From positions 119,693 through 183,692 of the forward strand of contig JADKAE010000004.1 of the NCBI GenBank assembly GCA_016715405.1: 64,000 nucleotides of DNA. Direction: 5' to 3'. Position numbers and translations under genes: made by a program. Below, piece by piece: positions 2,055-62,157 of this stretch. Position 1 is the stretch's first letter. Every line of letters begins with the position of its first letter. The notes beneath the pieces are model-generated. The model was not told the origin of the DNA. It did not search any database and worked only from the letters and a program-made list of their open reading frames with translations. Origin of the DNA: Saprospiraceae bacterium (GTDB lineage Bacteria; Bacteroidota; Bacteroidia; Chitinophagales; Saprospiraceae).

Positions 2055-2152
2055 GTTCTCTGTTCTCTGTTGTCGGTTGTCGGTTGTCCGTTTGTCAATG
2101 ATAAAGTTAGTAAAAAGAACGGAAAACAGAGAACGGAAAACGGAGAACAGAA
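2055..2152. terminator. periodic-arm hairpin downstream of hpt
   Basis: Left arm gttctctgttctctgttgtcggttgtcggttgtccg and right arm gaacggaaaacagagaacggaaaacggagaacaga are imperfectly complementary. Both arms are built from 7-8-nt repeats and lie 25 nt after the hpt stop. Confidence 0.45.
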
Positions 2153-2176
2153 TAATTCTGAAACCTGACTTATACT

Positions 2177-2716
2177 TTATTCGTCAAGCTGATAGATAGC
2201 CGGCAGATTTCTGCCAAGGCCGTTGTAATCCAAGCCGTAGCCTACTACGAACCGGTTGGGGATTTCAAATCCGAGGTAGTCAATATGGAGTGGGTGTACG
2301 AGGGCTTCTGGTTTGAACAGCAGCGTAGCGATAGCGATCGAGGCGGGTTGTAATTGGTGCAGGGTGGGCAAAAAATGCGCCATAGTATTGCCCGAGTCGA
2401 TGATATCTTCGATGAGGATGACATGGCGCTCGGCTACGGGCGTCTCCAAGCCTATCCTTTCACTTATTTCGCCGCTGGATTGCGTACCCTTGTACGAGGA
2501 TAGTTTAATAAAAGACACCTCGCAGTCGATCGAGCAGGCTCTTGCCAGGTCGGCGGCAAAGATAAAAGCGCCGTTGAGCACGCCGAGCAATAGTGGGCGC
2601 TTGCCGGCATAATCGGCGCTAATGGCGGCGCCCAGTGCCTGTACCCTTTGTGCCAGGTCGGACGCTTCAATCATAAGCCTGAAAGACAGGTCGTGGAGTT
2701 GAATCGGGTTTGACAT
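2177..2716 (-). CDS. hpt: hypoxanthine phosphoribosyltransferase
   Basis: 179-aa ORF with the PRPP-binding motif VILIEDIIDSGNT and overall Hpt layout (LLLGVLNGAFIFAADL..., FVVGYGLDY). Confidence 0.9.
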   Translation of the reverse strand: MSNPIQLHDLSFRLMIEASDLAQRVQALGAAISADYAGKRPLLLGVLNGAFIFAADLARACSIDCEVSFIKLSSYKGTQSSGEISERIGLETPVAERHVILIEDIIDSGNTMAHFLPTLHQLQPASIAIATLLFKPEALVHPLHIDYLGFEIPNRFVVGYGLDYNGLGRNLPAIYQLDE

Positions 2717-2722
2717 AAGTAC

Positions 2723-4125
2723 TTAATCGAGTCCGTATTTATCAAGAAGGAATACCAGGGCGGTCATGGCAGCGGCGCCGAGTTCGAGCTCGCGTTTGTT
2801 TACGCTGTCAAAGTTGTCGGTGGGTGCGTGGTGAAAATCAAAATAGCGCTGGGAGTCGGGTTCGAAGCCGATGAGGAGGCCTTTCTGCGATTTGAGGCCG
2901 CCGATGTCGGCTCCCGAACCGCCTTTCGACAGGCGTAGTCCGTAGGGTTCGAGTAGGGACATCCACCGGGCCATTTTTTTGAATTTGGCTTCAAACACGG
3001 TGGCATCTCCCTCGCAGGTAAAACCCTGGGGGTAAAGCCGCCGCGATCCGATTCAATGGCAGCCATGTGGTATTCGCCGGCTTTATTAGATTCGCTGAGA
3101 TAAGTGCGGCCTCCGACGAGCCCGTTTTCTTCGTTCATAAACAACACACAACGCAGGGTGCGCTTGGGTTTATAGCCCATCGTTTTGAGCAGGCGGAGTA
3201 CTTCCATCGACTGTACGCAGCCGGCGCCGTCGTCGTGGGCGCCACCGCTGACATCCCAGGAGTCGAGGTGGCCGCCTACCAGGATGATATCACTGGGGCG
3301 TTCGCTGCCGCGCCATTCGGCGATGACGTTGTAGGAGAGCGCTTCACCCATGTGCATGCAGGTAGAGCGCATGTATACGCGCACGGGTTCATCTTTAAGC
3401 AGACTGCTAAGCAATTCGGCGTCGTTGGTGCTGATGCCAAAAGCGGGGATGCGGGGTGTGCCTTCTTCGTAGGCCAGGCTGCCGGTATGGGGCACGTCGT
3501 CGAGTCGCGAAGTCATGGATCGCACCAGCACGCCCACAGCGCCGTAGCGGGCAGCCCGGGCCGCTCCGTAACCGCGTTGGTCGACGGCGCCGCCATAAGC
3601 GGCAAAGGTATTGAGATGCGTGGGGTCGAACGGGCGGTTAAAAAACACAATCTTGCCTTCGAGGCGCGAGCGACCCAGCTTTTCGAGGTCGTCGAGGTGG
3701 TCCACTTCTATTACTTCGGCGGTAAGTCCTGCGGGTCCGGTGCCTACCGAGTTGCCCAGCGCCAGCGCCCGAAGGTCCAGGCTTCCCATCTTGCGCGAGT
3801 TGACTACCCGCACCTGCTCGGCGTCGCCCCTCACCCAGTGCGGCACCATACAAGGCTGGAGCCACACAGAGTCGAAGCCGATGGTGTCGAGTATCCAGCG
3901 GGTATATTCTACCGAAGCCGCAGCCTGGGGCGAACCGCTGAGCCGCCCGCCGATGCGGGTGGTGAGGTATTCCAGCCAACTATAGCAGCGGCTGTCGGTA
4001 AGCGCCTTGTCGTATATCCGCCTGATGTAGAAGGCATCTTCATCAGTAGTAGTTGCAGGGGTTTCCTGCGCATAGCTGGAGAGCCATGCGCCCCAGCAGA
4101 AGAGTAGTAGTAACCAGTTTTTCAT
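2723..4125 (-). CDS. M28 family aminopeptidase (frame broken once in this consensus)
   Basis: ORFs 2800-4158 and 2723-2998 are the N- and C-parts of one protein. It has signal peptide MKNWLLLLFCWGAWLSSYAQ and metal-ligand motifs GGHLDSWDV..GAHDDGAG and FMNEENGL. The frames join (..GGFTPRGFTCEGDATVFEAKF..) if one C is added to the CCC run at 3024-3026. Confidence 0.85.
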
Positions 4126-4654
4126 CCTTTCCGGTAAACGTGTTATGTTGCCTGCCAAAATTGGGGAATTGCAGGCAGAAAGTGGCTTTACTTTTCACAA
4201 ATCTTCTGCTACGCCCGTTTTTTTGACTTGTTTCCCGAATTGCCGGCTGCATAAGGGCGTCCTTTCGCCCGGCATAAAATTTTTTTTCGCTGCTTTTTGT
4301 GGAAAACATTTCTGTGGGGATTGTGATTTTTGAAATATTACATTATGTCTATGTGGAATTTTGATTGTTTATTTTGATAAAATTATTTTTGATGTACTTT
4401 ATATTTTACAAAATAAATAACAACTGCACATAAGTTTGTTTTTTGGTTTTTTGTCATTTTTGATTTAGTGCGTTTTTTCGAACAAACAAGCGGTTTTTAT
4501 GGTAGCTTTCAAACAAGGGGTGAAAAATTTTAATGAATTTGTAATTGTATTTTTTACAATAAGTATGTATCTTTGCTTTCAGAATTGTTAATCGATAGCT
4601 TTCATTCGCTAGTCAAACTAGCTGACAGCAGTTATCAAAAAGTCTTCGCTTCTG

Positions 4655-4985
4655 ATTGCTGACTGCTAATTGCTAACTGCTAGTTATAAAGATATAATTT
4701 GGTTTTATTTGGTTAGGGCTGAGGTAGTGCTTTATGCGCTGCCTCTTTTTTTTACACCGGACACTGTGAACAGGGAACAGCACGGGGGGCACCCCCCTGG
4801 CCCCCTCTCCACCTCCCCCCAAACCCCTCCCTCCCCCTCCCTCTTCAAATTTTTCACCAACAACCCTCCTCAAACCCCCCCCCCCCCCAAAAAATTTTTA
4901 CCCCCCCCAAAAAAAAAAAACACCCCCCCCCCCCCACCACCAAAAGTATTAGCAGTTAGGGCTTAGGGCTTAGGCAGTCAGACGG
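4655..4985. other. hairpin arms (TTAGCAA-type repeats) enclosing a low-complexity poly-C/poly-A block at 4781-4945
   Basis: ctgactgctaattgctaactgctag (4655-4690) is complementary to tagcagttagggcttagggcttaggcagtcag (4948-4985). Between them lie degenerate runs of C, A and T with no coding sense. Confidence 0.6.
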
Positions 4986-4986
4986 A

Positions 4987-5613
4987 CTAATCGCAAATCG
5001 TCGCATCTGGGTCTAAGCCGCAAGCCCTGAAGCCCATTGCCCGCCTGTTAAAGCGCCCTCTTTTGGGTTTCTTCCACCCTAAACACCTGTGGCTCTTGCA
5101 GCACCTTTTTTGGCGGTTTTCGTGCCCGGGGTAATACGCCAGCTTTTGGTCGGTGTTGGCGATAGCGGTATCAAACTTCTTATGGATATGGATTTCGCGC
5201 ACCTTGCCGTCGACAAAATCAATTTGCAGTTCGCGGGTTTTGAGGTCGGCTTCGAGTGCGTGGTAGGTAAGGCGGCTGAGGCGGCCGTTTTGCATGAGGC
5301 TGTCGACGGCGTATTTGTCGAGCCAGGCGGGGCGGTTGATGTCGGCTTCGGCAAAGAGGCGCAGCTCTTCGCTGAAGTCGACGCTGTCGAGGGTTTGTTC
5401 CTCAATGCGGCCGTCTATTTCGAGGCGTTTGCGCAGCTGCGGTTTTTTTGCCGTCAAGCTCGCAGCTTCCTGCTGGAAGTAGGTTTTTAGGTCAAAAAAA
5501 TGCGGATTGCTAAGCGGAACTGTTCCGGGGGATTCCTGCCGGCAGGCGGATAGTACAAGTAATAGAGATGTATTAATAAGGATGCAAAAAGAACGAAATG
5601 AACGGTGTGACAT
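4987..5613 (-). CDS. hypothetical lipoprotein
   Basis: 208-aa ORF with lipobox LLLVLSAC. The last ~45 residues look out of frame; an alternative frame gives ...KKVLQEPQVFRVEETQKRAL ending near 5048, so a frameshift near 5100-5115 is possible. Confidence 0.55.
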   Translation of the reverse strand: MSHRSFRSFCILINTSLLLVLSACRQESPGTVPLSNPHFFDLKTYFQQEAASLTAKKPQLRKRLEIDGRIEEQTLDSVDFSEELRLFAEADINRPAWLDKYAVDSLMQNGRLSRLTYHALEADLKTRELQIDFVDGKVREIHIHKKFDTAIANTDQKLAYYPGHENRQKRCCKSHRCLGWKKPKRGRFNRRAMGFRACGLDPDATICD

Positions 5614-5661: not shown

Positions 5662-6057
5662 TTACCAGCACCTCTTTATATGAGTATTAGCTAAATAATG
5701 ATCAAAAATTTCGTCTTTGCTAAGCAGATCCATGTTCTCTACTATTGCTTGTGAAATTATCATCCTGTCGAATGGATCTCTGTGATGAAAAGGTAATTTG
5801 TTCTGTATAATTGTATGGGCGAAATTGATGGGTAGAACCCCTATTTCATTTTCTATCACGTCATTAATAACTGTGTCATACGTGCCCGCAATAGTTAATT
5901 TACCTAATGAAGTCTTGATAGATATTTCCCAAAGGCTGGCAATGCTAATAAAAATTTCATTTTCAATATCCTCTATAACGGCCTTGGCATATGAACTTAG
6001 TTCCGGAGAACCTTCATTGAACCAAAGGAATGTGTGGGTATCTAGTAGATACTTCAT
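5662..6057 (-). CDS. vapC: PIN-domain toxin, VapC family
   Basis: 131 aa starting MKYLLDTHTFLW, with acidic PIN residues (D6, E44 in SLWEISIK, DPFDRMI). It overlaps the upstream antitoxin ORF by ATGA at 6054-6057. GC is clearly lower than the flanks. Confidence 0.85.
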   Translation of the reverse strand: MKYLLDTHTFLWFNEGSPELSSYAKAVIEDIENEIFISIASLWEISIKTSLGKLTIAGTYDTVINDVIENEIGVLPINFAHTIIQNKLPFHHRDPFDRMIISQAIVENMDLLSKDEIFDHYLANTHIKRCW

Positions 6058-6269
6058 TGCATGTATTCTTTGAAATCCTCTAACGGCTCATCGAAGTCAG
6101 GAGCAAGTATATATTTACCCTTAACTCGTCCAAAAACCCTTTTACCTTTACTTTTTTGAGCAGGCTGAGTTGTGTATTCATTTTTTAAAAATTCAATAAA
6201 GTGCATGACCTCGACCTTCAAGCTCTCAGGCAGCCGGTAAATTTCATAGATTATGCGTTGTTCATTCAT
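6054..6269 (-). CDS. DUF2281-type antitoxin
   Basis: 71 aa, MNEQRIIYEIYRLPESLKVEVMHFIEFLK...APDFDEPLEDFKEYM, the typical DUF2281 partner of PIN toxins. A 4-nt overlap with vapC suggests translational coupling. Confidence 0.75.
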   Translation of the reverse strand: MNEQRIIYEIYRLPESLKVEVMHFIEFLKNEYTTQPAQKSKGKRVFGRVKGKYILAPDFDEPLEDFKEYMQ

Positions 6270-8559: not shown

Positions 8560-8597
8560 ATTTAAGAGAGTGTGGGAGAGTGAGAGGGTTCTCTCCT

Positions 8598-9041
8598 TCA
8601 CTTCAGCAGCAATAAATCGTTAAACGCGTAGTTCAGCAAATCGAAAGTAGTCACAATACCTTTTAGTTTGCCGTCATTATCGACTACCGGCATTGCGTGA
8701 AACAGGTTTTCACGGAAGATGTCGGCGGCAAGCTCGATCTTATCTTCCGGGCGTAGTTTGGCTACTTGTTTCACCATCACCTCGCGCACCAACAAGGAGC
8801 GCATAATCGCCTCGTTATATTCCTCGCTTTTTTGCGTATTAAAAATGGTAAAGCCGTGTAGCAATTTCAGGTAGTCGGAATAACTAACGATTCCCACCAC
8901 CTTGCCTTTGTCTACTACTGGTATGTGGTGAATATGGTGCTCCTGGAAAATGGCTTGAACCTTATTCATAGTATCATCAGGAGCTACCGATAGTACTTGG
9001 GTGGTCATAATAGCGGCCACCGTGAGAGATTTGTCAGTCAT
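8598..9041 (-). CDS. CBS-pair domain protein
   Basis: The ORF is 8598-9089; the probable start is MTDKSLTVAAIMTTQVLSV (ATG 9041). It has two CBS motifs (HHIPVVDKGKVVGIVS, HAMPVVDNDGKLKGIVT) and no other domain. Confidence 0.85.
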   Translation of the reverse strand: MTDKSLTVAAIMTTQVLSVAPDDTMNKVQAIFQEHHIHHIPVVDKGKVVGIVSYSDYLKLLHGFTIFNTQKSEEYNEAIMRSLLVREVMVKQVAKLRPEDKIELAADIFRENLFHAMPVVDNDGKLKGIVTTFDLLNYAFNDLLLLK

Positions 9042-14270: not shown

Positions 14271-14344
14271 GAGAATGGGAGAGGGGAGAGGAGGGGCGAG
14301 AACTGTATCCCCGCTCTCCCCTCACCCCCTCACCCCCTCCCTCT
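14271..14344. terminator. periodic-arm hairpin (GGGAGAG / CTCTCCC type) between convergent genes
   Basis: gagaatgggagaggggagaggaggggcgag / ccccgctctcccctcaccccctcaccccctccctc. The right arm overlaps the last natB codons. Confidence 0.5.
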
Positions 14345-15555
14345 GAGTAGCTTCCAATTCACCTTCTCTCCCGTTACCACGTTTTCATTGCCGAAGATGT
14401 GCGATGCCAGGTAAAGCGCCAGCAATCCATACAGCAAGGCAAAAAACACGACCAATACCATTGCGGGCAGGCTGAACGTGCCTTTGAAGATGGCGCCGAT
14501 GGCCAGACAAATATTGAGCACGGGTACCAGCGCGGTAGTCATCGTAAGCTCCATGCCGGGCATCTGGGCCATCACAGCCGGGATGAGCACCAGCATCATG
14601 AGGGGCGACACGTAACTTTGTGATTCTTTGTACGAATTGGCCAGCAGCGATACCGCCATGCTGAGCGCCGCCAGGAAAACCGTAGACAAAACGATGAGCG
14701 TGATCATCCATACCCAGCCCTGCGCACTGACGGCCAGCGAAATAGCGCTCACATTGCCGCCCATAATTTTGGCTTGCAACAACACGGCAAATACCAAACT
14801 AAACAGGTTCATCAGGGCAGAGGCGAGGCCTACGCAGGCCACCGCCAGGAATTTACCCGCGATGATCTCCCGCACGTTTACCGGAGTAGTAAACAGCGTT
14901 TGCAGGGTGCGCCGCTCTTTTTCGCCGGCGGTAATGTCGATGGCGATGTATATGCAACCTGTGAAGATAAACAACATCAGCAGCATAGGCGCGTATGTAC
15001 CCAGTACTTTGCCGATTCGTTGACTCGGTTTGGCCAGGTCTTCTTCCTGTATCAACAGGGGCTGGGCGAAGGTGGGCGGCAGTTTTACGCCCTGCAGGCG
15101 CTCTTCGAGCAGCGACTGGTTGAGTTTGTTGAGCAAGCCGGTTATGGATTGCTTGCGACCGTCGAGCAGGTCTTTTGAGAAGTCGCCTGTTATGCGCAGG
15201 ATCACCGACTCGTTGGCGGCAAGCCCGGCGGCGTAATTGCCGTCTACCCGGATGCCTATGGTGTTTTTCTCTTCGGTCAGCGCCTGGCTGTCAAATGCCT
15301 GCACTTTGACTACAAACGAGGGGTCGCTGCCAATTAGCCCAGGCACCGGCGTCTGCTCCAGTGCCGGGTCGATGAGCACGGTCACTTTTTCCTGCTGCAT
15401 CTTGCCGGCCTGGCTTTGCCCTACCTTGCCGATGAGGAAAAACAAGGCCGGATACAGGAAAAACGGCAGCAATATGACGAGGTACAAGGTGCGCTTGTCG
15501 CGCAAACCTCGAGGATTTCTTTGCGGAATATGGTATTGATGATGGAGGTACGCAT
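14330..15555 (-). CDS. natB: ABC-2 type transporter permease, NatB-like (one indel)
   Basis: 391-aa ORF with multi-pass C-terminal helices. The true N-terminus MRTSIINTIFRKEILEVLRDKRTLYLVILLP is recovered from ATG 15555 if one A is added to the AAA run at 15504-15506. Confidence 0.8.
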
Positions 15556-15565
15556 GTGTTGTGGT

Positions 15566-15640
15566 TTTAGCAATTAGCTCTTAGCAATTAGCGGTCAGTT
15601 CTTTGAAGCTGATTGCTGTTAGCTGACTGCTGATTGCTAA
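15566..15640. terminator. periodic-arm hairpin (TTAGCAA type) between natA and natB
   Basis: tttagcaattagctcttagcaattagcggtcag / ctgattgctgttagctgactgctgattgctaaa. It abuts the natA stop and ends 11 nt before the natB ATG. Confidence 0.5.
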
Positions 15641-16365
15641 AATTGGACCATTTCAAAAAACGCATCGGCCAGCCGGGCCTGATTGGTGGCGGCGAGGGCC
15701 GAATCTATATCGCCGTGGTGTTGGAGGCGGCCTTTGTGGATAATCACCACGCGGTCGCACAGGCGCTCCACTTCGTCGAGGTGGTGCGTGGAGAAGATCA
15801 CAGCTTTGCCGTTCTCCCTGGCCATACGGCGAATGAATTGCAGGATAAACTCGCTGGCCATGATATCGAGTCCGGTGGTGGGTTCGTCGAGGACTACCAC
15901 TGCCGGGTCGTGCACCAGGGTGCGGGCGATGGATACGCGTTGCTTTTGCCCAGTGGACAATTTTTCGCAGTGTTTGTCTTTAAAATCGCCGATGCCGAAG
16001 GCTTCTACCAGTTCGTCGATGCGGCGCCGGAGCTCGGGCCGTGGTACTTCGTAAAGTTGACCGAAGTAGGTGAGGAGTTCTACGGGGGTAAGGCGCCTGT
16101 ACAGGTCCATGTCGCCGGTGAGGAAGCCGAGTGCGCGGCGTGCGACCAGGGGTTCTTTTTGCACCGAGTGTTGGTTGATAAAAGCTTCGCCGGCGGTGGG
16201 GGCGAGCAGTCCGGCCAACATGCGCAGCGTGGTGGTCTTACCGGCGCCGTTGGGGCCGAGCAGTCCCACGATCTCGCCGGGGTGTACTTCAAAACTGACC
16301 TCTTGCACGGCATGTACCTCGCCAAAGCGTTTTCCCAGATTGCGGGCTTCTATTGATGCGGGCAT
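15637..16365 (-). CDS. natA: ABC transporter ATP-binding protein, NatA-like
   Basis: 242 aa with Walker A GPNGAGKTT, signature LSTGQKQRV and Walker B VVVLDEPTTGLD. Confidence 0.9.
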   Translation of the reverse strand: MPASIEARNLGKRFGEVHAVQEVSFEVHPGEIVGLLGPNGAGKTTTLRMLAGLLAPTAGEAFINQHSVQKEPLVARRALGFLTGDMDLYRRLTPVELLTYFGQLYEVPRPELRRRIDELVEAFGIGDFKDKHCEKLSTGQKQRVSIARTLVHDPAVVVLDEPTTGLDIMASEFILQFIRRMARENGKAVIFSTHHLDEVERLCDRVVIIHKGRLQHHGDIDSALAATNQARLADAFFEMVQF

Positions 16366-22441: not shown

Positions 22442-22454
22442 GTTTTGTTTATAA

Positions 22455-37500: not shown

Positions 37501-37506
37501 TCTCCC

Positions 37507-44094: not shown

Positions 44095-44174
44095 TTTCGG
44101 AATGCGGATTTCGGAATGCGGATTTATCTCTGAACAATCCGCAATCCGAAATCCAAAATCCGAAATCCAGAATT
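44090..44174. terminator. periodic-arm hairpin (TTCGGAT type), second copy
   Basis: ttgatttcggaatgcggatttcggaatgcggattt / aatccgcaatccgaaatccaaaatccgaaatccagaatt with loop atctctgaac. The left arm overlaps the stop codon. Confidence 0.6.
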
Positions 44175-47580: not shown

Positions 47581-47642
47581 GTTTATGGGTTTATAGGTTT
47601 ATGGGTTTATTGATAAACATATAAACCCATAAACCCATAAAC
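47581..47642. terminator. periodic-arm hairpin (GTTTATGGG type), second copy
   Basis: gtttatgggtttataggtttatgggtttat / ataaacatataaacccataaacccataaac forms a ~30-bp stem with a few mismatches, between convergent genes. Confidence 0.65.
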
Positions 47643-48541: not shown

Positions 48542-48623
48542 AACCACAGAGTTTCACTGAGTTTACACGGAGTTACACAGAGTGAGATTATACCCTCTGT
48601 GTAACTCCGTGTCCTCTGTGGTT
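48542..48623. terminator. two-tier hairpin
   Basis: The outer pair is aaccacagag / ctctgtggtt and the inner pair cacggagttacacagag / ctctgtgtaactccgtg (17 bp perfect), with loop tgagattatacc. It lies between the porin stop and the nadC ATG. Confidence 0.7.
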
Positions 48624-50718: not shown

Positions 50719-50870
50719 GTCGGCAATCAGCAGTCAGGCAGTCGGGGCGTAGCGGCTTTGCGCCTGGCCGGTTGCTGCGTTAAAAAATAACCCAGACTGG
50801 CCCCCCGAAGCGGCGGCGCCGGCGCCCCCCCCCCCCCCCCCCCGCCGGCCCCCCCCCCGCGGCGGGGGGG
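50719..50870. other. half hairpin (CAGTCGG type) followed by GC homopolymer junk
   Basis: gtcggcaatcagcagtcaggcagtcgggg is followed by a C20 run at 50824-50843 plus C and G runs. No complementary arm is present. Confidence 0.6.
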
Positions 50871-50872
50871 AG

Positions 50873-52764
<1,892 letters not shown>

Positions 52765-52773: not shown

Positions 52774-53575
52774 ATGCCGGAACCCCTGATATTAAATATA
52801 GAAACCGCCACCGACGTATGCTCGGTGGCCTTGTGCCTCGGCGAAGAGGTGTTGGCGCTCGTAGAATCGCAGACCGTCAACGACCATGCCGCGCAACTCA
52901 CCACGTATATCGACCAATGCATGGACAAGGCGGGTTACAGGCTCGGCGAACTCGACGCGTTGGCGGTGAGCGGCGGTCCGGGTTCGTATACTTCGCTGCG
53001 CATCGGCGTGGCCACGGCCAAAGGCATCTGTTACGCCCTCGACAAACCCCTGCTGGCCGTGCCTACGCTGGAATCGCTGGCACACGCCGCCCGCCAAATC
53101 GCGGTTGACCAACCCACGCCGTATTGCCCATGATCGACGCCCGCCGTGGGGGTCAGCGCGCGTACACGACGAGGAAGGCCGCGAGGTGAGGTGGCAAGGC
53201 GCAAAAAAAGCAAAAACAGGACGAGCAAGGCCGCGAGGGGGGGGGGGGGGGTGCCGCCGGGGCCGGTCGAGAGGTGGCATGGCAAATTGGCTGGGGATGA
53301 ATGGGCTGCAAAAGGGCTTTGCCGGGGGTGCGTTGAGTTAAATAGTTTTTTTTGGGTGGCAGCGCGTCGAGGACAAAGCCAGGCCGCTATTTATTTCTCC
53401 GCAAGTGTTTTTTATCGATTTGCGATGCTCGGCGCAACACCTGTCCCCTTTGTCCGTTGAACAATTTGCACAAGGCGCCTTTGTCGATTTGGCTTATTAC
53501 GAACCATTTAGTTTTTTTTATTTAAAACCTCCCAATATTAACGCAAGCCGCACGCTAAAAATACGGGGATTTTGA
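52774..53575 (+). CDS. tsaB: tRNA threonylcarbamoyladenosine biosynthesis protein TsaB (middle third corrupted)
   Basis: The N-terminus ILNIETATDVCSVAL...ALAVSGGPGSYTSLRIGVATAKG is intact to 53133. After that come frame changes and the G15 run at 53237-53251. The C-terminal SAQHLSPLSVEQFAQGAFVDLAYYEPF..YLKPPNI is recognisable at ~53410-53575. Confidence 0.75.
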
Positions 53576-53631: not shown

Positions 53632-54567
<936 letters not shown>

Positions 54568-54588
54568 TGTTTGATGTTGGATTTTTAT

Positions 54589-55465: not shown

Positions 55466-55479
55466 GCTTGAATTTTTTT

Positions 55480-55630
55480 ATAAAAACGTTTAGTAGGGTT
55501 TAGCGATGGGTGGGGGATTGGGGGTTGTTGCAACCGGGCGCCACCCCCCCCCCCCCCCCCCCCCCCCCAACAAAAAATTAGGGCTAAAGGGGCGCGGCGC
55601 CCCCCCCCCCCCCCCCCGCCCAACCCAACA
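55480..55630. other. G-rich repeat arm followed by C25 and C18 homopolymer junk
   Basis: tagggtttagcgatgggtgggggattgggggttg is followed by C-runs at 55544-55568 and 55600-55617, then cgcccaacccaaca. Confidence 0.6.
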
Positions 55631-56350: not shown

Positions 56351-59302
56351 TTATTGTTTAATTACTTTTCGGGTTTCCACAACGCCGTCTTGATTGGTCA
56401 GGCGCACAAAATAGATACCCGGTTCCCAATCGACTTCAGCTATTTCGATTTGGCGCCTGCCCGCCGAGGCGTATTCCATAATTTGGGTGGTCATCACCTG
56501 GCCCAGGCATTGAGCACGTCGAGTTTGAATTGGTACAACACGCCAACGCCCTGTGCGTCTATTTCGATACGGAGCGATTCGGTGAACGGGTTGGGCATCA
56601 CCCGCCAATGAAAGCCGTTTGGCGGGGCAGGAGCGATATCGGTTATGCAGCTGGTGTGGAAGGCAAAATTACTGGCCGTATCGCTCTGGCTAAATCCGCA
56701 GACAGTTTGTATCTGCACTTCGTAATCGCGGCAGGGCTCAAGATCGGTTAATACGATACCGGGGGATAGGGAGGTGCGTTCTTCCCACAAATCTTCTCCG
56801 GCCTTGCGATAGCGTATCACATAACTAATTGCCGGCGATACTAAATCCCAGCCCAACTCGGCATTGGTGAGATACACGCTGAGGGTATCTATGTTGGCGG
56901 GCGAAGCACAGAAGGAGGCGGGCACAATAATAACGCAGTAGTCTTCCACTTCGCCAAAAGTACCGTTGGGGAAATTACAAGGGCCAACCACGTTCTGGAA
57001 ATTCATCACGACGCGCATGCGGGTAAAACCCAGGGGCGAAGCGGGCGGGAACGACAATAGCCCCTGTGACGGTAGTATTGGAGGAAGCTCCCGGGTCGAA
57101 GGCGAGCTCGTCGTTTTCAAAATCGCCGTTTTGGTTGTAGTCGATCCACACTTTGAAATATTCCTGGAAGACAAAACCCGAAAACGCCGGGCTGAGGCTG
57201 ATATCGTAGCTACCTCCCAATTCGAGCACAGGAGGGGTTATTTCGGTATAGAGGCCGTAGCCGTCGTCGCTTCCGCTCGTATTGTCGATGCCGGCAAAAA
57301 CGACTTTTTCTATCCATTCTTCTCCGGCATCGAGCCCGTTTGCGGGGCAATAGTTGAGGTCGGTGCAAGCGCCGCAGCCGCTCGTGCGGAATTCGACGAG
57401 TGCGGTGGGGGTGGTTTGCAGGGTATCGCAAACGGTAAACAGGGCAATTTCGTAATCGGTGCAGGCGGTGAGACTATCGAGTGAGAAGCTGTTGCCGGCC
57501 ACTTCGATCGTTTGCCAGGTAGAATCGCCGGCAGGGCGGAGTTGCAGCACAAATTGGGTGGCGGCCAATACGTTGCCCCACGTTGCCAACGCGGAAGTAT
57601 CGTTGATTTCGGATACCTGAAAGCCTTGCGGCAATTCGCAACAACCGTCGGTCTTGAAGGTGTAGTTATTGAAAAGGGTGGCCGTATCGCTGCTGCAATA
57701 GGCCGTGATTTGCAGTTCGTATTCGGAACAGGCGAGCAGACCTTCGAGCAAGAAGGGCGAGCTGACGCCGCTGATGGTATCCCAATTGAGGCTGTCAGCC
57801 GGGCGCCAAAGCAGGTCAACCTGGATTACACTGTCGGTGGCCGCCCAGGAGATCGTGGCCCGATCGCCGGTAATATCGACGGCATTAACGCTGGTGGCGG
57901 GCGGACAGCCGCTGCAATTTTGCATCAGCAGTTGGAGGCTGTTAAACACATTGAGGCGGCCGCCGGTGACGGTGATGCTATCGAGGCTGGCATTGGGGGT
58001 CACTCCCTCCAGGATGTATTGTTTGGCGAGTAATACGGCCGCTGCCGGGTCGCTTTTTGCGATAGCGATAAAGGAAGGGCATGGCGCGGAATAAAGCAGA
58101 CCTATCGTACCTGTCACATGCGGGGTAGCGCCCGAGGTGCCACCGAAGGGTCCGTAGGTATTGGGGAGGTCGGTGGTCCAGGTACTTGCACCGAAAGCGC
58201 CCAGGTCTATTGTGGTAAGTCCGTAGCCTGCCGAGGTGACCTTCACGTCGTTGTGGTTCATGTTGGTCACTGAGATAAGGTAATCGCTCGGACAAGCCGT
58301 GGGCAGGTCGCCTTCTATGTCCACGTTAACATTGCCATTAATCGTAGCGCCGCAGTTGAGTATACCGTTGGTGCCGAGGGTGTCGTAGAAGGCGCACCAG
58401 AGGGGGGCGTCCTCGGGGTCGCCCAGGTCGACGCCCCAGGAGGCGTTGGTAGCTACTACAAAGGCTCCTTCTTCGCCGTTGGTTTCGTTGTATCGCATAC
58501 GCTGTACCAGCGGGTAGGAGTAGGCTTCGAGCACGGCAGCTTCGTCGGTATTAAAATTATTTTTGACAACCATCACTTTTACATTCCAGCTGATGCCCGA
58601 CACGCCAATGCCGTTATTGCCTTTGGCGCCCATAATGCCGGCAACGGGGGTGCCGTGGCCGCCGCCGCTGATATTGTCGGTGCCGGTCACGGTGCTCCAA
58701 CCGCGATAGTCATCCACGTAGCCGTTGCCGTCGTCGTCGATGTCGTTGTCGGGGATTTCGGCGTGGTTAATCCAGAGGTTGTCTTCGAAATCCTCGTGGT
58801 TGAGGTCAATGCCGTCGTCGAGGGCGCAGACCACGATAGTGTCGCCTTGCACGGTAAGTCCGCCGGTGGTAATATCCCAGGCGAGGTCCATGTCGATATC
58901 GGCGCCGGGAAGGCCGCCGGTCTGACCGGTATTGATGTATTGCCACTGGCTGTCGAAGCCGGGGTCGTCGGGTATGGTAGAGCGGGTAGTGACGAAGTGG
59001 TTGAACTGGGCTTCCACGACTTCGCGGTCGCGGCGGATGGCCTGCAGGAACCGGGTTTCGTGGATGCGGGCAAAGTCGAAAGTGAGGGCCCAGATGTGCA
59101 TAGGCGCCGACACGAGTTTGCGGGTTTTAAGTCCGGTAGGCCGCCCTTCAAAATACTGCCATTTTTTGGCCCATTGTTGCGCGCTGACCTGCGGGCGGAA
59201 TTGTACCAGCACTTCGCCTTGTACGTGGTCGAGCAATTGGCTTTTGGCGGGTAATAAAAATGAGAATACGGCGAGAGCGACTAACGATAGGCGGCGCATC
59301 AT
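56351..59302 (-). CDS. secreted subtilisin-like S8 serine protease with Fn3-like modules, GEVED domain and T9SS type A C-terminal domain (two indels)
   Basis: The catalytic triad is VCALDDGID, GGGHGTPVAGIMG and GGTSGATPHVTG. It has the GTFGEVEDYC motif and the tail VMPNPFTESLRIEI...GIYFVRLTNQDGVVETRKVIKQ. The fragments at 56975-59302, 56494-57174 and 56351-56608 join near 57045 and 56506. Confidence 0.85.
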
Positions 59303-59410: not shown

Positions 59411-60129
59411 TCAGGGACGCAGGGTGCGTTTGTTGAGCCTAAGCGTTTTTAAGACGCCGCGTTTTTCATTGATCAGGCTCACCAGGTAGAGGCCGGCGGG
59501 TATGTCGGAGATGTCGTAGCGATTATTTTGAGAAGCGTCGAAAGTGCGAATCCTTTTGCCGATCATGTTGTAGAGGATGATCTCGTCAACAGGGGCATTG
59601 GGCGTAATTTCAAAATAGTCGATGGCGGGATTGGGGAACAGGCGTAGACTAGCCTTTGAGAATTCTTTGTCGGCGTCTTCCACATTGGCGGTTAGTATCA
59701 GCGTGCCGATGGTTTTATCGGGGCTTTTAGTGAGGGAAAAGGGAATTTCATACACGCCCCTGCCGGCAGCCCCCATCGGTAGTATATGCAGGGAAAACGT
59801 AAGGGAAGCGCCCGGCGCCAGTTCTACCGGCGCGTTGATATTGTATTTGGGGGCGTAATTGGTGGCTACGTCGGGCGTGTAATAGGCGAAGTCGTCGCAC
59901 ACTTGCGTTTGCCAGCCCAGCGGCTGGTTTACGATGTTCCTTTTCCACTTCAGCAGCAGGGTTTGGTTGGGGATTGTGACCGTAGCACTCAATTCAGCGT
60001 TTTCGACCAATCGTCGAGGTCTACCAGGAAGCGCTCTTCCACGGCATTGGGCTCAAGTGACAACAGCTTTTGCGAATAGCCGTTGCCTATTGCCGAAAGG
60101 GTTAGAATCAGGAGTAAAAAGTGCTTCAT
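59411..60129 (-). CDS. hypothetical secreted protein with T9SS type A C-terminal domain (one indel)
   Basis: The N-terminus MKHFLLLILTLSAIGNGYSQ starts at ATG 60129 and joins ORF 59411-60010 if AA at 60009-60010 is AAA. The tail is LRLFPNPAIDYFEI...GLYLVSLINEKRGVLKTLRL. Confidence 0.7.
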
Positions 60130-60226
60130 TGGGCTACAATCGTTAATATGGGCATTAAGTTACGTCTTTTTTAACGCAACAAGCCTCAAAATGGAACGGC
60201 AAAATGGCGTTTTAATTTTTAATTAA

Positions 60227-60283
60227 CAGCAGTCGGCAGTCGGCTATCGGCTACTTGGATCCGACTGCCGACTGCCGACCGCC
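60227..60283. terminator. periodic-arm hairpin (CAGTCGG type)
   Basis: cagcagtcggcagtcggctatcgg / ccgactgccgactgccgac. The right arm encodes the last residues of the DUF1611 ORF. Confidence 0.55.
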
Positions 60284-61333
60284 AGAATCCATAAACTCCC
60301 TCACCACCGGTATCAGCCTATCCACGCCTTCTTTGAGCGGGCGCACCACCGGGATGCCCATCACGGCCTCCGTTTCGCGCTGGTAAGCGGCCAGTTCGGC
60401 ATCGGTCATATTTTCTTCATTCAAAGTAATAGCCAGCACCCTGGCGCCGTACAAAGACAAGAGGCCTATTTCTGAAGCTATAAGGGGAATGGGTATGTCG
60501 GTGCTATCGTAGCAGCGGCGGCCCGGGGCGTGTTGCAGGATAACCCCGGTGACATTGCCCGAGAGGATAATCTCGCTGCCGCAGGGGCCGTTGGGATTGC
60601 GCAGCGCTGATTGGCCTTCAATGAGGATGAGGTCGGGATTGCTTTCGTTGGCACAATCCACAATCACCCGTTCGATTTCGCCGCTAACGAAATCGTTGAC
60701 CGTGCTGTCAAAGATAAAGCCATAGCGATATCCCTGCATCCAGCCTGTCTGCCCGGTATAAATCATCTCTGTAGCGATATTGTTTTCGCGGCAGCTTTCC
60801 ATCAGCATGCGGCAGGTGGTTCGTTTGCCCAGGGCGCAGTCGGTGCCCAGTACAGCAATTTTCGGTGTTTTGACCGAATAGATATCGCCGGTCCAGAAGC
60901 GCAGCGAATTGCGGGGTTTGGGTTTGCGCACATCGATGAGTTCTACGCGGTTTTTTTCGGCCAGCGCTTTGAAATCAGGGTCGTCGCTCAGAAAAGTATG
61001 CAGACCGCACACGACACCCATGCCCGAGCCGATGGCGGTATACAGCTCTTCGCGAAAATCTTCGGGCAGTTGTCCGCCGTGGAGCGCCACGCCCACCACG
61101 CAATATTTGGGTAGCGGCAACTCAGCGGCTTTATAATCGGCTATCGTAGCAAAAACGGGAATCCCCAGCGTTTTGCCGTCCATCACTTCGCCGGCGTCAC
61201 TGCCTGCGTGCTGATAGTCAATAACGGCCTGGATATCGAAGCGGTCGGTGCCGCGCAAGAGTCCGTGACAAGTTTTGGCATTAGACGTGGCCAGCATGCC
61301 GTGGGTGAGAATTATGGCGGTTGAATTTTCCAT
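60251..61333 (-). CDS. DUF1611 domain protein
   Basis: 360 aa. ..VLGTDCALGKRTT.. has a P-loop-like motif, and the overall DUF1611 layout matches from memory. Confidence 0.7.
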   Translation of the reverse strand: MENSTAIILTHGMLATSNAKTCHGLLRGTDRFDIQAVIDYQHAGSDAGEVMDGKTLGIPVFATIADYKAAELPLPKYCVVGVALHGGQLPEDFREELYTAIGSGMGVVCGLHTFLSDDPDFKALAEKNRVELIDVRKPKPRNSLRFWTGDIYSVKTPKIAVLGTDCALGKRTTCRMLMESCRENNIATEMIYTGQTGWMQGYRYGFIFDSTVNDFVSGEIERVIVDCANESNPDLILIEGQSALRNPNGPCGSEIILSGNVTGVILQHAPGRRCYDSTDIPIPLIASEIGLLSLYGARVLAITLNEENMTDAELAAYQRETEAVMGIPVVRPLKEGVDRLIPVVREFMDSGGRQSAVGSK

Positions 61334-61337
61334 ACTT

Positions 61338-61345
61338 CAAATATA
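61338..61345 (-). promoter_or_regulatory. -7 promoter box (TATATTTG on minus strand)
   Basis: Forward caaatata, 4 nt upstream of ATG 61333. Confidence 0.45.
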
Positions 61346-61357
61346 TCAATATGCGCG

Positions 61358-61365
61358 TATCTTTG
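61358..61365 (+). promoter_or_regulatory. -7 promoter box TATCTTTG
   Basis: An exact TAnnTTTG match, 7 nt upstream of ATG 61373. Confidence 0.45.
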
Positions 61366-61372
61366 CACGCAT

Positions 61373-62053
61373 ATGAGAACGATATTCTATTGTATATGTG
61401 CGGCGGCGGTCCTGCTGGGTCAGGCCGGCTGCGCCAACGGCGCCGGAAAACCCCGGCTGATTGCCGATTATTTTGTGCGCTACCTGGCCGACGTATCTGA
61501 GATCAAGGCACAGGCCAGCTTTTACGAAGGCGATACCCTGGAGACGGCGGTGCCCAAAGTGATTGCCGGCGGCGTCAGCTTCCAGCAAAGCGCCATGGAA
61601 GCCAAATCGCTCCAGCGCGAGGTGGTTCGCTATTTGCTGCAGCGTCGCAGCGAGTTCATCCCGCCCTTTACTTTCGCCTTCACCGGCGACGACGGCGAGA
61701 AAGTGACCTACACCCTCCCGATGAACCCCATCGACAGTTTTTCCTTTAAAGGGCCTATAAGTAAGTCGAAAGGCGGCACGCTGATACTCAAAGGCGAGCC
61801 CCTCAGCGCCAAAGAAAGCCTGGTAGTGCTTTTTAGCGATGCCCGCAACCAGGCCGGCTCTGTGACTATTCAAGGTCCTATTACTACCCAGGAAGTCTTC
61901 ATACCCGCCACCAATCTGGCCAATCTGCAAACCGGCGCAGGCATGGTTTATCTGGTGCGGAAAATTGTAAAAATCGAGGATACTCCGGCGCGTTATGTCA
62001 TTGCGGCAGGAGAGTATTATACGCCGGCTATCGGGGTGGTGCTGGTGGAGTAG
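61373..62053 (+). CDS. hypothetical lipoprotein
   Basis: 226 aa with lipobox LLGQAGC. No family recognised. Confidence 0.6.
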   Translation: MRTIFYCICAAAVLLGQAGCANGAGKPRLIADYFVRYLADVSEIKAQASFYEGDTLETAVPKVIAGGVSFQQSAMEAKSLQREVVRYLLQRRSEFIPPFTFAFTGDDGEKVTYTLPMNPIDSFSFKGPISKSKGGTLILKGEPLSAKESLVVLFSDARNQAGSVTIQGPITTQEVFIPATNLANLQTGAGMVYLVRKIVKIEDTPARYVIAAGEYYTPAIGVVLVE

Positions 62054-62157
62054 GGGAATGGGGGACTTGGCGAGGGGGCGAGGGGGCGACTTTTCTTAAG
62101 ACAACGGCACAGCTCGCCCCCTCTCCCATTCTCCCTCGCCCATTCTCCCTCTCCCTC
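62053..62157. terminator. periodic-arm hairpin (GGCGAGGGG / CTCTCCC type)
   Basis: ggggaatgggggacttggcgagggggcgagggggcgac / ctcgccccctctcccattctccctcgcccattctccctctccctcg. Confidence 0.55.

Follow-up and report, generated by a model that had tools for sequence, protein, structure and literature searches.

What are the hairpins that stand directly after many stop codons in a 64-kb stretch of a Saprospiraceae genome (the window), and how did they arise? Their arms are themselves tandem copies of a 7-8-nt word. An earlier note, made from the sequence alone, proposed that neither plain terminators nor a single REP or MITE family would produce this architecture, and suggested either birth by slippage or a factor that recognizes periodic stems. 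The source of the window is a wastewater bacterium of the Bacteroidota that is Saprospiraceae-like.

Detection of periodic hairpins

Period-7/8 arrays were found with TRF at all loci named by the earlier note, and an inverted-repeat search of the window showed that these arrays pair up into inverted repeats whose arms measure 22-41 nt and are 74-100% complementary. A custom scan (arms of at least 16 nt, at least 72% complementarity, loops of at most 120 nt) returned 14 inverted-repeat loci, compared with a mean of 2.6 (maximum 5) in 30 dinucleotide shuffles. When an arm was counted as periodic at an autocorrelation of at least 0.7 at 7-8 nt, both arms were periodic at 10 of the 14 loci and at none in all 30 shuffles. 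Under stricter scan settings, eight of nine long inverted repeats were periodic. The common architecture and its periodicity beyond shuffled expectation were therefore upheld, as was the recurrence of word families within the window (Table 1).

RNA folds of 12 window hairpins range from -23 to -62 kcal/mol. Ten of these have z scores between -4.6 and -8.8, with none of 200 shuffles folding equally well; the two weakest folds are those at 14271-14344 and 15566-15640. Several individual entries need qualification. The claimed half copies at 30236, 36218, and 50719 are indeed single-arm arrays, and the locus at 8565-8600, listed as weak, falls below the thresholds of the custom scan. The hairpin at 48542-48623 is strong, although periodicity in its arms is weak. 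Two complementary arrays do exist at 4655-4985, but they lie 270 nt apart, on either side of a low-complexity block without support from Illumina contigs, and a single hairpin at this place is doubtful.

Table 1. Arrays and hairpins of the window (fold energies in kcal/mol)
Position	Feature	Words and structure	Fold	Gene context	Relatives and reads
2055-2152	Periodic hairpin	5' arm GTTCTCT then GTTGTCG; 3' arm mirrored AACGGAA/AACAGAG	-28.6; z -5.1	Phosphoribosyltransferase gene stop (2177, - strand) and start of next - strand gene (Pfam)	
4655-4985	Two complementary arrays	TGCTAAC x3.7 at 4655-4682; TTAGGGC/TTAGCAG at 4950-4985; classical terminator (4721-4745) and C/A block between			No Illumina contig support for 4775-4955
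8565-8600	Short inverted repeat, marginal	GGGAGAG type		Spacer of convergent DUF4783 and CBS genes (Pfam)	
14271-14344	Hairpin	G-rich 5' arm GGGAGAG/GGGCGAG; C-rich 3' arm CCCCTCAC	-35.8, but z just -1.96	Between convergent Crp-type regulator and natB; covers final natB codons	L001: same-family hairpin at 20084-20172
15566-15640	Hairpin	TTAGCAA/TTGCTAA	z -3.3	natA-natB intercistronic spacer; natB start codon ~12 nt past hairpin	In Illumina unitig 14318-16260; L001: GTTTATAG; L002: 230-nt GGTTATGAGG hairpin
22447-22530	Hairpin	Octamer GTTTATGG/CCATAAAC	z -7.6	Between two co-directional - strand genes; downstream of sigma-70 gene	L001 and L002: hairpins with different word and copy number
24938-25077	Largest hairpin	ATTACGA/ATGACGA and TCGTAAT; 45-nt AT-rich loop	-45.7; z -7.2	Between divergent M19 dipeptidase and lysyl-endopeptidase-like genes	L001: only ~55 nt, remnants; family high-copy with other loops, also in RNA contigs
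30236-30272	Single-arm array	AATTACG/AATTGCG		Immediately 3' of CorA stop codon; classical terminator 30462-30494 downstream	L001: full ATTTCGG hairpin
36218-36256	Single-arm array	CTAAKNC/TTGCTAA type		LOG-family gene stop 10 nt upstream	
37454-37502 (entry 37454-37551)	Hairpin, then unpaired array	GTTGTGG/GTTGTCG with CCGACAAC; unpaired GTCACCGT x5.6 at 37507-37551	-32; z -7.65	7 nt past PDZ/Por_Secre_tail gene stop	
40265-40340	Hairpin	ATTTCGG/ATTGCGG with CCGAAAT; 26-bp perfect stem	-40.4; z -7.4	Entire spacer of convergent DUF6089 OMP (stop +3) and EF-G-like (stop +2) genes	k-mer depth ~100x flanks; contigs break at 40264/40266 and 40339/40340
44090-44174	Hairpin, second TTCGGAT-family member	Loop TATCTCTGAACA, homologous to loop of 40265-40340	z -7.6	Covers cytochrome c stop codon; upstream of BamD-like gene	
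47581-47642	Hairpin, second copy	GTTTATGG/CCATAAAC	z -6.7	Convergent DUF4835 and quinolinate phosphoribosyltransferase genes, stops 10 and 11 nt away	
48542-48623	Strong hairpin, weakly periodic	18-bp perfect core; CACGGAG/CACAGAG, period ~10 nt	-44.4; z -8.1	Between OMP gene stop and QRPTase gene start	In L101/L106/L146, ATTGCGG hairpins are enclosed by outer arms of these words
50719-50747	Single-arm array	CAGTCGG type		Begins at GldB stop codon	6-nt indels in related strain
54563-54586	Unpaired array	TTTGATG x3.4		Takes up 21-nt spacer of convergent porin and lipid A acyltransferase genes	Absent from the earlier note's list
60227-60283	Hairpin	CAGTCGG/CCGACTG	-42.9; z -8.8	3' arm within final codons of DUF1611 gene	Inside Illumina unitig 59904-61746, 1-nt difference
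62047-62157	Hairpin	G-rich 5' arm GGCGAGGG; C-rich 3' arm CTCGCCC/CTCTCCC	-61.6; z -4.6	Begins at stop of gene ending 62053; carB downstream	Left arm and loop in Illumina unitig 61799-62132

The hairpins are real DNA. An independent Illumina run yields unitigs that cover the whole of 15566-15640 and 60227-60283 and extend into further hairpins. A JGI contig and an NCBI MAG have the same architecture at their orthologous sites, and it recurs in more than 120 unrelated metagenome contigs. Artefacts of error-prone long-read assembly have a negligible probability as the explanation. The window does contain indel errors, seen as split genes (CorA, EF-G-like, QRPTase, Rpn, porin, and S8 peptidase) and as indels relative to Illumina contigs, and it has homopolymer blocks that lack Illumina contig support. 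Refuted for the hairpins, this reading may apply only to those blocks and to the interior of 4655-4985. The three outcomes that the earlier note named as refuting were each checked against the available data, and none of these checks overturned the observation.

Arms, words, and orientation

A hairpin arm usually consists of three to five units, with a period of 7 (33 hairpins) or 8 (13 hairpins) and seldom any other. Across phyla the arms hold two to six units, and the two arms of a hairpin vary nearly independently within that range, which is what slippage predicts. The same words are found at many loci, and unlinked loci of at least one family have a common loop. At least seven unrelated words occur in one genome, with no convergence on a consensus. 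In 66 hairpins versus eight, the two arms carry their units in mirrored order, a count biased upward because the arms had been chosen for best pairing.

The G-rich arm is almost always 5' (42 versus 8 across words, and 37 versus 0 within the TTCGGAT family). The two strands look alike: sense and antisense folds are equally stable (-44.4 versus -45.0 kcal/mol) and stem mismatches comprise 15 G.T and 12 A.C. This lack of strand asymmetry fits an origin at the DNA level.

Placement at gene ends

Hairpins occupy the spacer directly past stop codons, apparent operons included. A hairpin was considered stop-proximal if a long ORF pointing into it ended within -20 to +40 nt, and this holds for 8 of 10 hairpins in the window compared with 17% of random positions. 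The enrichment extends to relatives (14 of 15) and to metagenome loci (56 of 94), where random positions give 13-21%. Hairpins of the window lie -2 to +12 nt from stop codons, and the distances have their peak at -2 to +10 nt. The coordinates bear out the reported overlap of arms with the final codons of natB, DUF1611, and cytochrome c. On the gene map of the window, about 14 of some 28 spacers with a 3' end hold a hairpin, versus one of about 10 divergent spacers. The hairpin in that divergent spacer is the one at 24938-25077, which does not follow a stop codon as claimed.

The reported absence of U-tracts was also confirmed. No hairpin in the window has five or more T residues within 10 nt past its stem on either strand, and no periodic hairpin was among the matches of terminator scans of the window. 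The window contains only about four convincing canonical terminators in its 64 kb, and its terminator-like motifs do not exceed the shuffled level.

Inheritance and turnover among relatives

A given hairpin site is inherited among relatives, persisting between genomes with identities of about 90% and 80-85%. Four of five sites compared with L001 are common to both, as are two of two compared with L002, and one window hairpin is absent at its orthologous L001 site. The hairpin sequence turns over much faster than its flanks, through gain and loss of whole units and through changes on both arms. At orthologous sites the flanks are 80-91% identical, and unit number, loop, and sometimes word differ. 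A changed word on one arm has its mirror image on the other, as in GTTTATGG/CCATAAAC versus GGTTATGAGG/CCTCATAACC, orthologs differ by whole units with unbalanced arms, and at two orthologous sites the word has been replaced outright.

Comparison with known repeats

The architecture itself is already known from inverted tandem-heptamer pairs in Xanthomonas (PMC4692102) and from hairpins of cyanobacterial short tandemly repeated repetitive (STRR) sequences (PMC2670836), and the best reading of the hairpins described here is that they are a Bacteroidota counterpart of both. They share with STRRs tandem 7-nt units, several unrelated words per genome, and an intergenic location, and some STRR copies likewise form hairpins near a gene 3' end or between cistrons. 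These heptamer sequences were reportedly described by Mazel and coworkers in 1990. One STRR hairpin lies between hupS and hupL, where a role in transcript stability was proposed (PMC2670836). Apart from belonging to another phylum, STRRs are mostly one-sided direct arrays, with few paired arrays in Nostoc (PMC4692102), whereas inverted pairs predominate here, octamers are common, and arms have only two to six units.

The GGGAATC pairs of Xanthomonas (Rehm et al. 2015, PMC4692102) correspond more closely. There too, one heptamer forms two close arrays on opposite strands in convergent, G-rich-first orientation, typically with about four units per array. Those pairs are mostly intergenic, rare between divergent genes, and transcribed, and they keep their gene context between species while length varies: each genome has 70-75 pairs, 83% of them in the same gene context (PMC4692102). 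However, Xanthomonas uses one G-quadruplex-prone word, whereas at least seven words per genome are found here, most of them unable to form a G-quadruplex, and the position immediately past the stop codon is not emphasized for the Xanthomonas repeats (PMC4692102).

Direct TAACTGA repeats occur in Beggiatoaceae, cyanobacteria, and five Bacteroidetes (MacGregor 2015, PMC4679880). As here, these are heptamer arrays, and one identical word turns up in distant phyla although no mechanism of transfer is known; Bacteroidetes contain such arrays, and other heptamers share the same spacers. The window words TGCTAAC/CTGCTAA are one base from TAACTGA. The TAACTGA arrays, however, are direct repeats that closely precede start codons and, a single inverted case apart, share one orientation, whereas the window has inverted pairs that closely follow stop codons.

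The REP, BIME, and REPIN sequences of Proteobacteria are high-copy extragenic palindromes, for which REP block of 3' exonucleases is established; REPINs are hairpins of two inverted halves. The window hairpins resemble them in copy number, in being built from two inverted halves, and in where they lie (past stops, in convergent spacers, and within operons), and a similar exonuclease block is expected. REPs carry a conserved 5' GT[AG]G, are tied to a RAYT transposase, and have arms that are not tandem repeats. Here the arms are tandem repeats, and neither that motif nor a RAYT transposase was seen. Canonical intrinsic (Rho-independent) terminators also place a hairpin a few nucleotides past the stop and are symmetric between convergent genes. 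They differ in having a U-tract and stems of 5-14 bp, compared with 18-41 bp here (2-4 times longer), and folding energies here are 2-4 times larger; moreover, some window hairpins lie within operons and one in a promoter region. With many words, long stems, and no U-tract, the hairpins are indeed neither canonical terminators nor one REP or MITE family.

Origin and possible function

We give about even odds to the view that these are hairpin-forming long simple-sequence repeats, evolving by slippage and copy-correction and serving as REP-like 3'-UTR or intercistronic hairpins. Arrays would lengthen and shorten through replication slippage, and either selection for pairing or copying templated by the hairpin (through intrastrand template switching or repair) would keep the arms complementary. 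Recombination or gene conversion may homogenize or seed copies between loci, and hairpins might persist at gene 3' ends because they do least harm there. This putative route retains the slippage of the earlier note in part: whole-unit differences and unbalanced arms between orthologs agree with it, but slippage alone leaves recurrent words and homologous unlinked loops unexplained. Also counting against slippage with copy-correction are the strict G-first arrangement, which it does not predict, and the outright replacement of words at two orthologous sites, which is easier under insertion.

Insertion is the core of another possible, though less probable, account, in which the hairpins are non-autonomous mobile elements of REPIN or MITE type and whole hairpins are copied into further intergenic sites, with a preference for existing hairpins or 3' ends. 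The copying would be done by a trans-acting enzyme that recognizes folded single-stranded DNA (RAYT/IS200-like or another nuclease), and slippage would have added the internal periodicity secondarily. Hairpin families do have roughly 100-fold k-mer depth, contigs that break exactly at hairpin ends, and diverse flanks, but no target-site duplication or conserved terminal motif was seen at those ends. Homologous 12-nt loops at three unlinked TTCGGAT-family loci favor copying, but loops are unrelated between most hairpin copies. The replaced words and the hairpin missing from L001 would follow from mobility, yet sites are largely conserved rather than polymorphic among genomes 80-91% identical. 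Compound hairpins, with one word family nested in the arms of another (L101/L106/L146, L122, L161, and L096/L126), also fit. So does the occurrence of TTCGGAT/ATTGCGG hairpins in contigs assigned to Acidobacteria, Planctomycetota, Nitrospirae, and other Bacteroidota, which spreads the same ATTKCGG hairpin over at least four phyla, although such sharing could arise by chance in a 241-million-record database with about 600 possible words. Fixed G-first orientation could simply be inherited from a founder, but it holds for unrelated words too. The window has no RAYT/IS200 gene, its sole transposase-like gene being a split Rpn/YhgA homolog.

The hairpins are unlikely to be dedicated bidirectional terminators that lack a U-tract, replace scarce canonical ones, and are kept by selection on RNA structure. 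Placement directly past stops, the filling of whole convergent spacers (14271, 40265, and 47581), the scarcity of canonical terminators, very stable stems, coordinated change of both arms between species, and a symmetric design suited to both directions all suit such a role. Against it, several hairpins (natA-natB; 22447) probably stand inside operons, with the next start codon following after 12-20 nt, the 24938 hairpin lies in a divergent promoter region, and neither a G.U over A.C excess nor a sense-strand stability advantage is seen. To our knowledge, bacterial RNA polymerases studied so far require a U-tract for efficient intrinsic termination. Less probable still is the second suggestion of the earlier note, that the arrays are bound, as DNA or single-stranded RNA, by a factor that reads their 7-8-nt period, much as S1/Csp/CsrA were proposed for TAACTGA repeats. 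The sharp period, arm lengths confined to two to six units across phyla, and fixed orientation would fit, and regulatory effects of heptamer arrays have been suggested in Nostoc (bioRxiv 10.1101/2022.06.06.494920) and Beggiatoaceae (PMC4679880). No candidate factor was identified, however, and close relatives swap words at the same site. Nor do the data support a factor that reads periodic stems: one genome has at least seven unrelated words without a consensus, and base pairing sequesters these words in stems of -23 to -62 kcal/mol.

If the simple-sequence-repeat view is correct, the hairpins would be transcribed within 3' UTRs or intercistronic spacers, where a 25-35-bp stem would be expected to cause weak RNA polymerase pausing, block 3'-to-5' exonucleases, and serve as an RNase III substrate. 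These properties would lead to a REP-like role as mRNA-end or processing hairpins and leaky bidirectional terminators, rather than canonical intrinsic terminators. Any function must be dispensable, because such hairpins are few or absent in most related species in a sample of 80 dipeptidase-locus flanks (0.14 per 10 kb versus about 1.6 here), which also weighs against dedicated terminators. At natA-natB, the roughly 12 nt between hairpin and natB start leave no room for a promoter, and the hairpin must therefore be read through. RNA contigs on natA and natB have similar depth, and metatranscriptome contigs contain hairpin sequences, the RNA data being unitigs that break at repeats.

Periodic Arms and Fold Stability

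Almost every long hairpin in the window DNA is built from periodic arms. Tandem Repeats Finder (TRF) detected arrays with a period of 7 or 8 at every locus named in the earlier note, which had described at least 14 hairpins with arms made of tandem 7-8-nt words, and the unit is present in 2.3 to 7.7 copies over all loci. An inverted-repeat search of the window paired arrays into arms of 22-41 nt with 74%-100% complementarity. An ungapped scan for inverted repeats that included a measure of periodicity found 14 loci in the window, compared with a mean of 2.6 and a maximum of 5 in 30 dinucleotide-preserving shuffles. Both arms were periodic at 7-8 nt at 10 window loci and at none in any shuffle, and under stricter settings eight of the nine long inverted repeats of the window were periodic.

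Predicted RNA folding energies range from -23 to -62 kcal/mol. Ten of 12 hairpins have z-scores between -4.6 and -8.8, with none of 200 shuffles as stable; weaker folds are found at 14271-14344 (z = -1.96) and 15566-15640 (z = -3.3). The period is 7 nt in 33 hairpins, 8 in 13, 9-10 in four, and 6 in one. Among 90 hairpins of a single family, arms contain two to six units, mostly three to five, and the two arm lengths of a hairpin vary almost independently within this narrow range. Runs of GGG are limited to the families at 14271 and 62047 (GGGAGAG and GGCGAGGG) and to GTTTATGGG, and are absent from the words TTCGGAT, ATTACGA, TTAGCAA, CAGTCGG, and GTTGTCG. The window gave no Rfam match at the gathering score, and a tRNA scan of it returned nothing.

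The reported lack of U-tracts was borne out: neither flank of any hairpin carries one, and the tails have 0-4 T per 10 nt on both strands. The periodic hairpins are also absent from the output of a consensus terminator scan of the window, which recovered classical terminators at 4721, 20725, and 30462. Some entries in the original list of loci require revision. The hairpin at 24938-25077 does not follow a stop codon and instead occupies a spacer between divergently transcribed genes. The arrays at 4655-4682 and 4950-4985 are kept apart by a low-complexity block of C/A runs as well as by a classical terminator, and the arrays at 30236, 36218, and 50719 are one-armed. At 48542-48623 the hairpin is strong but the arm periodicity is weak, and 8565-8600 is marginal. 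Additional one-armed arrays are included in the table.

Location at Gene Ends

The window DNA was detected in wastewater and activated-sludge runs. Its flanking M19 dipeptidase has its nearest proteins in Saprospiraceae and Lewinellaceae, and exact-protein look-ups of this dipeptidase gave no match. A hairpin was scored as stop-proximal when a long ORF directed into it ended at -20 to +40 nt. This applies to eight of 10 window hairpins (17% of random positions), to 14 of 15 in relatives (13%), and to 56 of 94 in metagenome contigs (21%), which agrees with the placement after stop codons proposed from the window sequence. The stop-to-hairpin distance peaks at -2 to +10 nt, and all window loci are spacers or overlap last codons. 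By a curated gene map of the window, a hairpin or array is present in about half of the ~28 spacers that include a gene 3' end and in one of ~10 divergent spacers. The convergent spacers at 14271, 40265, and 47581 are made entirely of hairpin.

Several hairpins are probably located inside operons. The natA-natB hairpin ends ~12 nt upstream of the natB start, and the hairpin at 22447 is ~14 nt from the start of the downstream gene. Both must be transcribed through because too little room is left for a promoter. Unitigs from metatranscriptome RNA runs break at the repeats.

Turnover at Orthologous Sites

Two related genomes, a JGI contig (L001, ~90% DNA identity to the window) and an NCBI MAG (L002, ~80%-85%), retain a hairpin at four of five and two of two covered window sites, respectively. 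Hairpin content has diverged much further than the flanking DNA. The hairpins at 22447 belong to one family in all three genomes; the MAG has a longer word (GGTTATGAGG/CCTCATAACC vs. GTTTATGG/CCATAAAC), with nine units on one arm and three to four on the other. This gene pair is not kept in relatives more distant than these two genomes. Between natA and natB, the window has TTAGCAA-type words, the JGI contig has GTTTATAG, and the MAG has a 230-nt GGTTATGAGG hairpin. After corA, a complete ATTTCGG hairpin in the JGI contig corresponds to a one-armed AATTCGT array in the window, and at the 24938 site the JGI contig has only ~55 nonperiodic bases with word remnants. The site therefore persists while its content turns over in unit number, in loop, and even in word, with word changes on both arms. 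Unit variants follow a mirrored order on the two arms more often than after unit shuffling (66 vs. 8, in 81 hairpins whose arms were picked for best pairing, a choice that biases the count upward).

Arm Orientation and Strand Symmetry

The G-rich array is almost always the 5' arm. All 10 window hairpins have more G than C in this arm, as do 11 of 13 hairpins in relatives and 21 of the 27 metagenome hairpins with other words. Counted over words in the window and loci L001-L164, G-first outnumbers C-first by 42 to 8, and additional array pairs of the ATTKCGG family are G-first in 37 cases and C-first in none. Nonperiodic inverted repeats gave 157 versus 103. Because an inverted repeat is identical when read on either strand, this orientation genuinely belongs to the element. 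It is not caused by stop codons in the 5' arm, a possibility that was tested and rejected (21 vs. 15, p = 0.36), and stop-free words still show the bias (10 vs. 2).

We also looked for an RNA-level signature of the transcribed strand and found no signal. The two strands, sense and antisense, fold with equal stability (-44.4 vs. -45.0 kcal/mol), and G.T mismatches are not in excess over A.C (15 vs. 12). Mismatches are mainly transversion-type differences from unit to unit.

Assembly Quality

The window assembly is clearly prone to indels. Many genes are broken into two overlapping ORFs (see table), and 1-base indels relative to Illumina contigs of a near-identical strain occur at the split points, for example at 21456 and 41646-41906. 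Together these indicate uncorrected indel errors in the window rather than real pseudogenes. The long homopolymer and low-complexity blocks are probably assembly artefacts as well. An Illumina unitig of the near-identical strain joins 55479 to 55627 by six other letters, and the block at 4775-4955 is supported by no Illumina DNA contig.

An assembly made with such errors invites the suspicion that the hairpins are themselves artefacts. This explanation is excluded. Two of the hairpins are spanned by independent Illumina unitigs (15566-15640 by the piece 14318-16260; 60227-60283 by the piece 59904-61746), and both related genomes have the same architecture at orthologous sites. At gene ends the hairpins do interrupt short-read assemblies, with consequences for the quality of metagenome-assembled genomes.

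Split genes, low-complexity blocks, and added one-armed arrays in the window
Feature	Position	Class	Remark
CorA	29180-30234	split gene	
EF-G-like	40342-42471	split gene	
QRPTase (quinolinate phosphoribosyltransferase)	47654-48533	split gene	
Rpn (Rpn/YhgA)	20850-21943 (+)	split gene	
BBP2 porin	53663-54567	split gene	
S8 peptidase	56494-59302	split gene	
Lysyl-endopeptidase-like	25148-29095	split gene	
SprB	30521-35142	split gene	
C25, C22	55480-55626	homopolymer	
C34	50825-50858	homopolymer	
G15	53237-53251	homopolymer	
T43	53669-53711	homopolymer	
C/A runs	4775-4955	low complexity	
Array	37507-37551	one-armed array	TRF; missing from earlier list
Array	54563-54586	one-armed array	TRF; missing from earlier list

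Distribution across Lineages

Relatives were sampled as 80 loci that surround the M19 dipeptidase gene in GTDB species. Few of these loci have strictly periodic hairpins, a count that is a lower bound because arrays mixing 7- and 8-nt units, such as GGCAARR in L205 and L206, are missed. A Lewinellaceae MAG has three, and single examples, each with its own words, are found in Haliscomenobacter, Flammeovirgaceae, and others. A looser threshold gives 0.14 hairpins per 10 kb in the 80 loci versus ~1.6 in the window. Relatives of 78% protein identity have GGTTACT and GGCAARR hairpins. A different, REP-like element with a GCGGGCTTTAGTCCGC core hairpin was seen at L005 19668-19816, in three tandem copies, and at L206 2742-2802; its genomes have few periodic hairpins.

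The TTCGGAT hairpin is present in at least 120 metagenome contigs, and G+C among the matches listed ranges from 0.40 to 0.73. Examples carrying the GGATT[TG]C form are L158, L159, L155, L150, and L103 (from L085-L164). The 90%-identity clusters of neighboring proteins name Saprospiraceae, another Bacteroidetes bacterium, Acidobacteria, Planctomycetota, and Nitrospirae, with phylum assigned from one protein cluster per contig. The sharing of one word across phyla may be due to chance, given the huge database and only ~600 distinct heptamer words. Phage as a vector for such spread has little support, as the pattern was found in only three viral contigs.

Several of these contigs carry further hairpins of other words, some of them compound. 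In compound hairpins, ATTGCGG arms are nested in outer arms of other words (L101 ~4090-4240, L106 ~1340-1480, and L146 ~5420-5570; also L122, L161, L096, and L126). The outer words are CACGGAG (compare window 48542) or GACGAAT (compare window 24938), and some nested hairpins instead have nonperiodic inverted flanks outside.

Precedent

Since 1990 bacteria have been known to carry tandem heptamer repeats, for which we know of no agreed function or origin. Two later papers (PMC4692102, PMC4679880) cite Mrazek 2007 for an over-representation of heptamer arrays in some bacteria. The 7-bp STRRs of cyanobacteria can fold into hairpins, as in the hupS-hupL spacer; they have been suggested to act in transcript stability, and their function is unknown (PMC2670836). 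Xanthomonas genomes have 70-75 inverted pairs of GGGAATC arrays each, mostly intergenic and transcribed, with 83% in the same gene context between species and variable in length (PMC4692102); as we read that description, the pairs are convergent, which equals G-first. TAACTGA direct repeats occur in Beggiatoaceae, cyanobacteria, and five Bacteroidetes, and no mechanism of transfer between them is known (PMC4679880).

The hairpin architecture thus has precedent. Like STRRs and other long simple-sequence repeats, the window hairpins are built of head-to-tail units of ~7 nt, of which the class has at least three, and like STRRs they are intergenic with a unit present at several dispersed loci. 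STRRs in the strict sense require a cyanobacterial host, so the window repeats are placed in the general long simple-sequence-repeat class. They resemble the close, convergent, opposite-strand heptamer arrays of Xanthomonas, but in most word families lack the tract of at least three G residues in each unit that confers G-quadruplex potential. A literature search with the repeat strings returned only unrelated primer coincidences. In the literature searched, we did not find descriptions of a setting in Saprospiraceae, of this density or this many word families, of octamer words, of the tight stop-codon placement, of the site-conserved word turnover, of the orientation bias over many words, or of the arm-length cap.

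Origin and Possible Function

The window elements are most likely hairpin-forming long simple-sequence repeats. Their arrays would evolve in place by unit slippage, with arm complementarity kept by hairpin-templated copying or by selection. Some copying process would seed or homogenize loci, and survival would be mainly at gene 3' ends. Candidate mechanisms are narrowed by the inherited sites with word turnover on both arms, by the G-rich arm coming almost always first, and by an arm length capped at ~2-6 units across phyla.

The main rival is a REPIN- or MITE-like mobile element. Six word families each occupy at least two window loci. In DNA runs, k-mer depth over the TTCGGAT hairpin at 40265 is ~100-fold (about two orders of magnitude) above that of its flanks, and many contigs with differing flanks stop exactly at both of its ends. 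The ATTACGA family has a like pattern of depth and contig breaks, with further copies that have different short loops in DNA and RNA contigs. Three unlinked copies of the TTCGGAT family have homologous 12-nt loops (TATCCTTGAACA at 40265, TATCTCTGAACA at 44090, and TACCCTGATTCA at L001 4718), so some copying from locus to locus exists, and it could proceed by transposition or gene conversion. Loops are mostly unrelated between copies. The ends of more than 80 copies, which are hard to place in degenerate arrays, show no target-site duplication, no conserved terminal motif, and no tetranucleotide in common. REP and REPIN elements have a conserved 5' GT[AG]G and no tandem periodicity, and the window hairpins differ on both points. 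A Y1 transposase of the RAYT type was found in none of 60 ORFs scanned against Pfam within these 64 kb. A single ancestral consensus for all words, such as ATTKCGG, was also considered and rejected because the clustering was weak and mostly reflected the ATTKCGG family itself.

As long simple-sequence repeats, the hairpins would be transcribed in 3' UTRs and intercistronic spacers. From the REP analogy and from what RNase III and 3' exonucleases are known to require, we infer that mRNA ends would be protected or processed by a stem of 25-35 bp, which would terminate transcription only leakily. A dedicated bidirectional terminator that works without a U-tract would suit the convergent spacers, and is less likely for elements that include hairpins transcribed through; canonical intrinsic terminators differ in having a U-tract (at least five T in eight) 0-2 nt past a short GC-rich stem. 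Also less likely is a factor that binds the periodic words, which would account for the sharp period of 7 or 8 nt and must contend with words that change at a persisting site. We think it improbable that a single cross-phylum class (three to five units of 7-8 nt per arm, G-first, at stops) has a dedicated copying mechanism and acts as a U-tract-independent bidirectional 3'-end signal in Bacteroidota, in the contigs with Acidobacteria, Planctomycetota, and Nitrospirae assignments, and in Xanthomonas as described in the literature. If it did, the fixed orientation would reflect a cotranscriptional logic, for example a C-rich arm never exposed to Rho, or G-rich nontemplate DNA stalling polymerase arriving from either side.

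Should the hairpins shape mRNA 3' ends, predictors that accept only terminators with a U-tract will miss many transcript boundaries in such genomes. The window provides a dense, multifamily example in an abundant wastewater lineage, and metatranscriptomes together with relatives at graded distances make the heptamer-repeat question testable.

Other Features of the Window

The only transposase-like gene in the window is the Rpn/YhgA-like gene (Pfam Transposase_31), which is split by a frameshift and has in-frame 12/24/36-nt tandem repeats in its 3' half (21658-21800). A DUF6089 gene contains ~2.3 copies of an 81-nt tandem repeat (38685-38907) encoding thrombospondin type 3 (TSP_3). Metagenome k-mer depth is very high at 16215-16282, 51409-52009, 62227-62827, and 63429-64000. 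These stretches are conserved coding motifs (ABC ATPase, IMPDH, CarB), and their depth reflects words common to other community members rather than genome repeats. A PIN-domain gene at 5662-6269 (-) has a small overlapping upstream ORF of 71 aa, and the two probably form a toxin-antitoxin pair.
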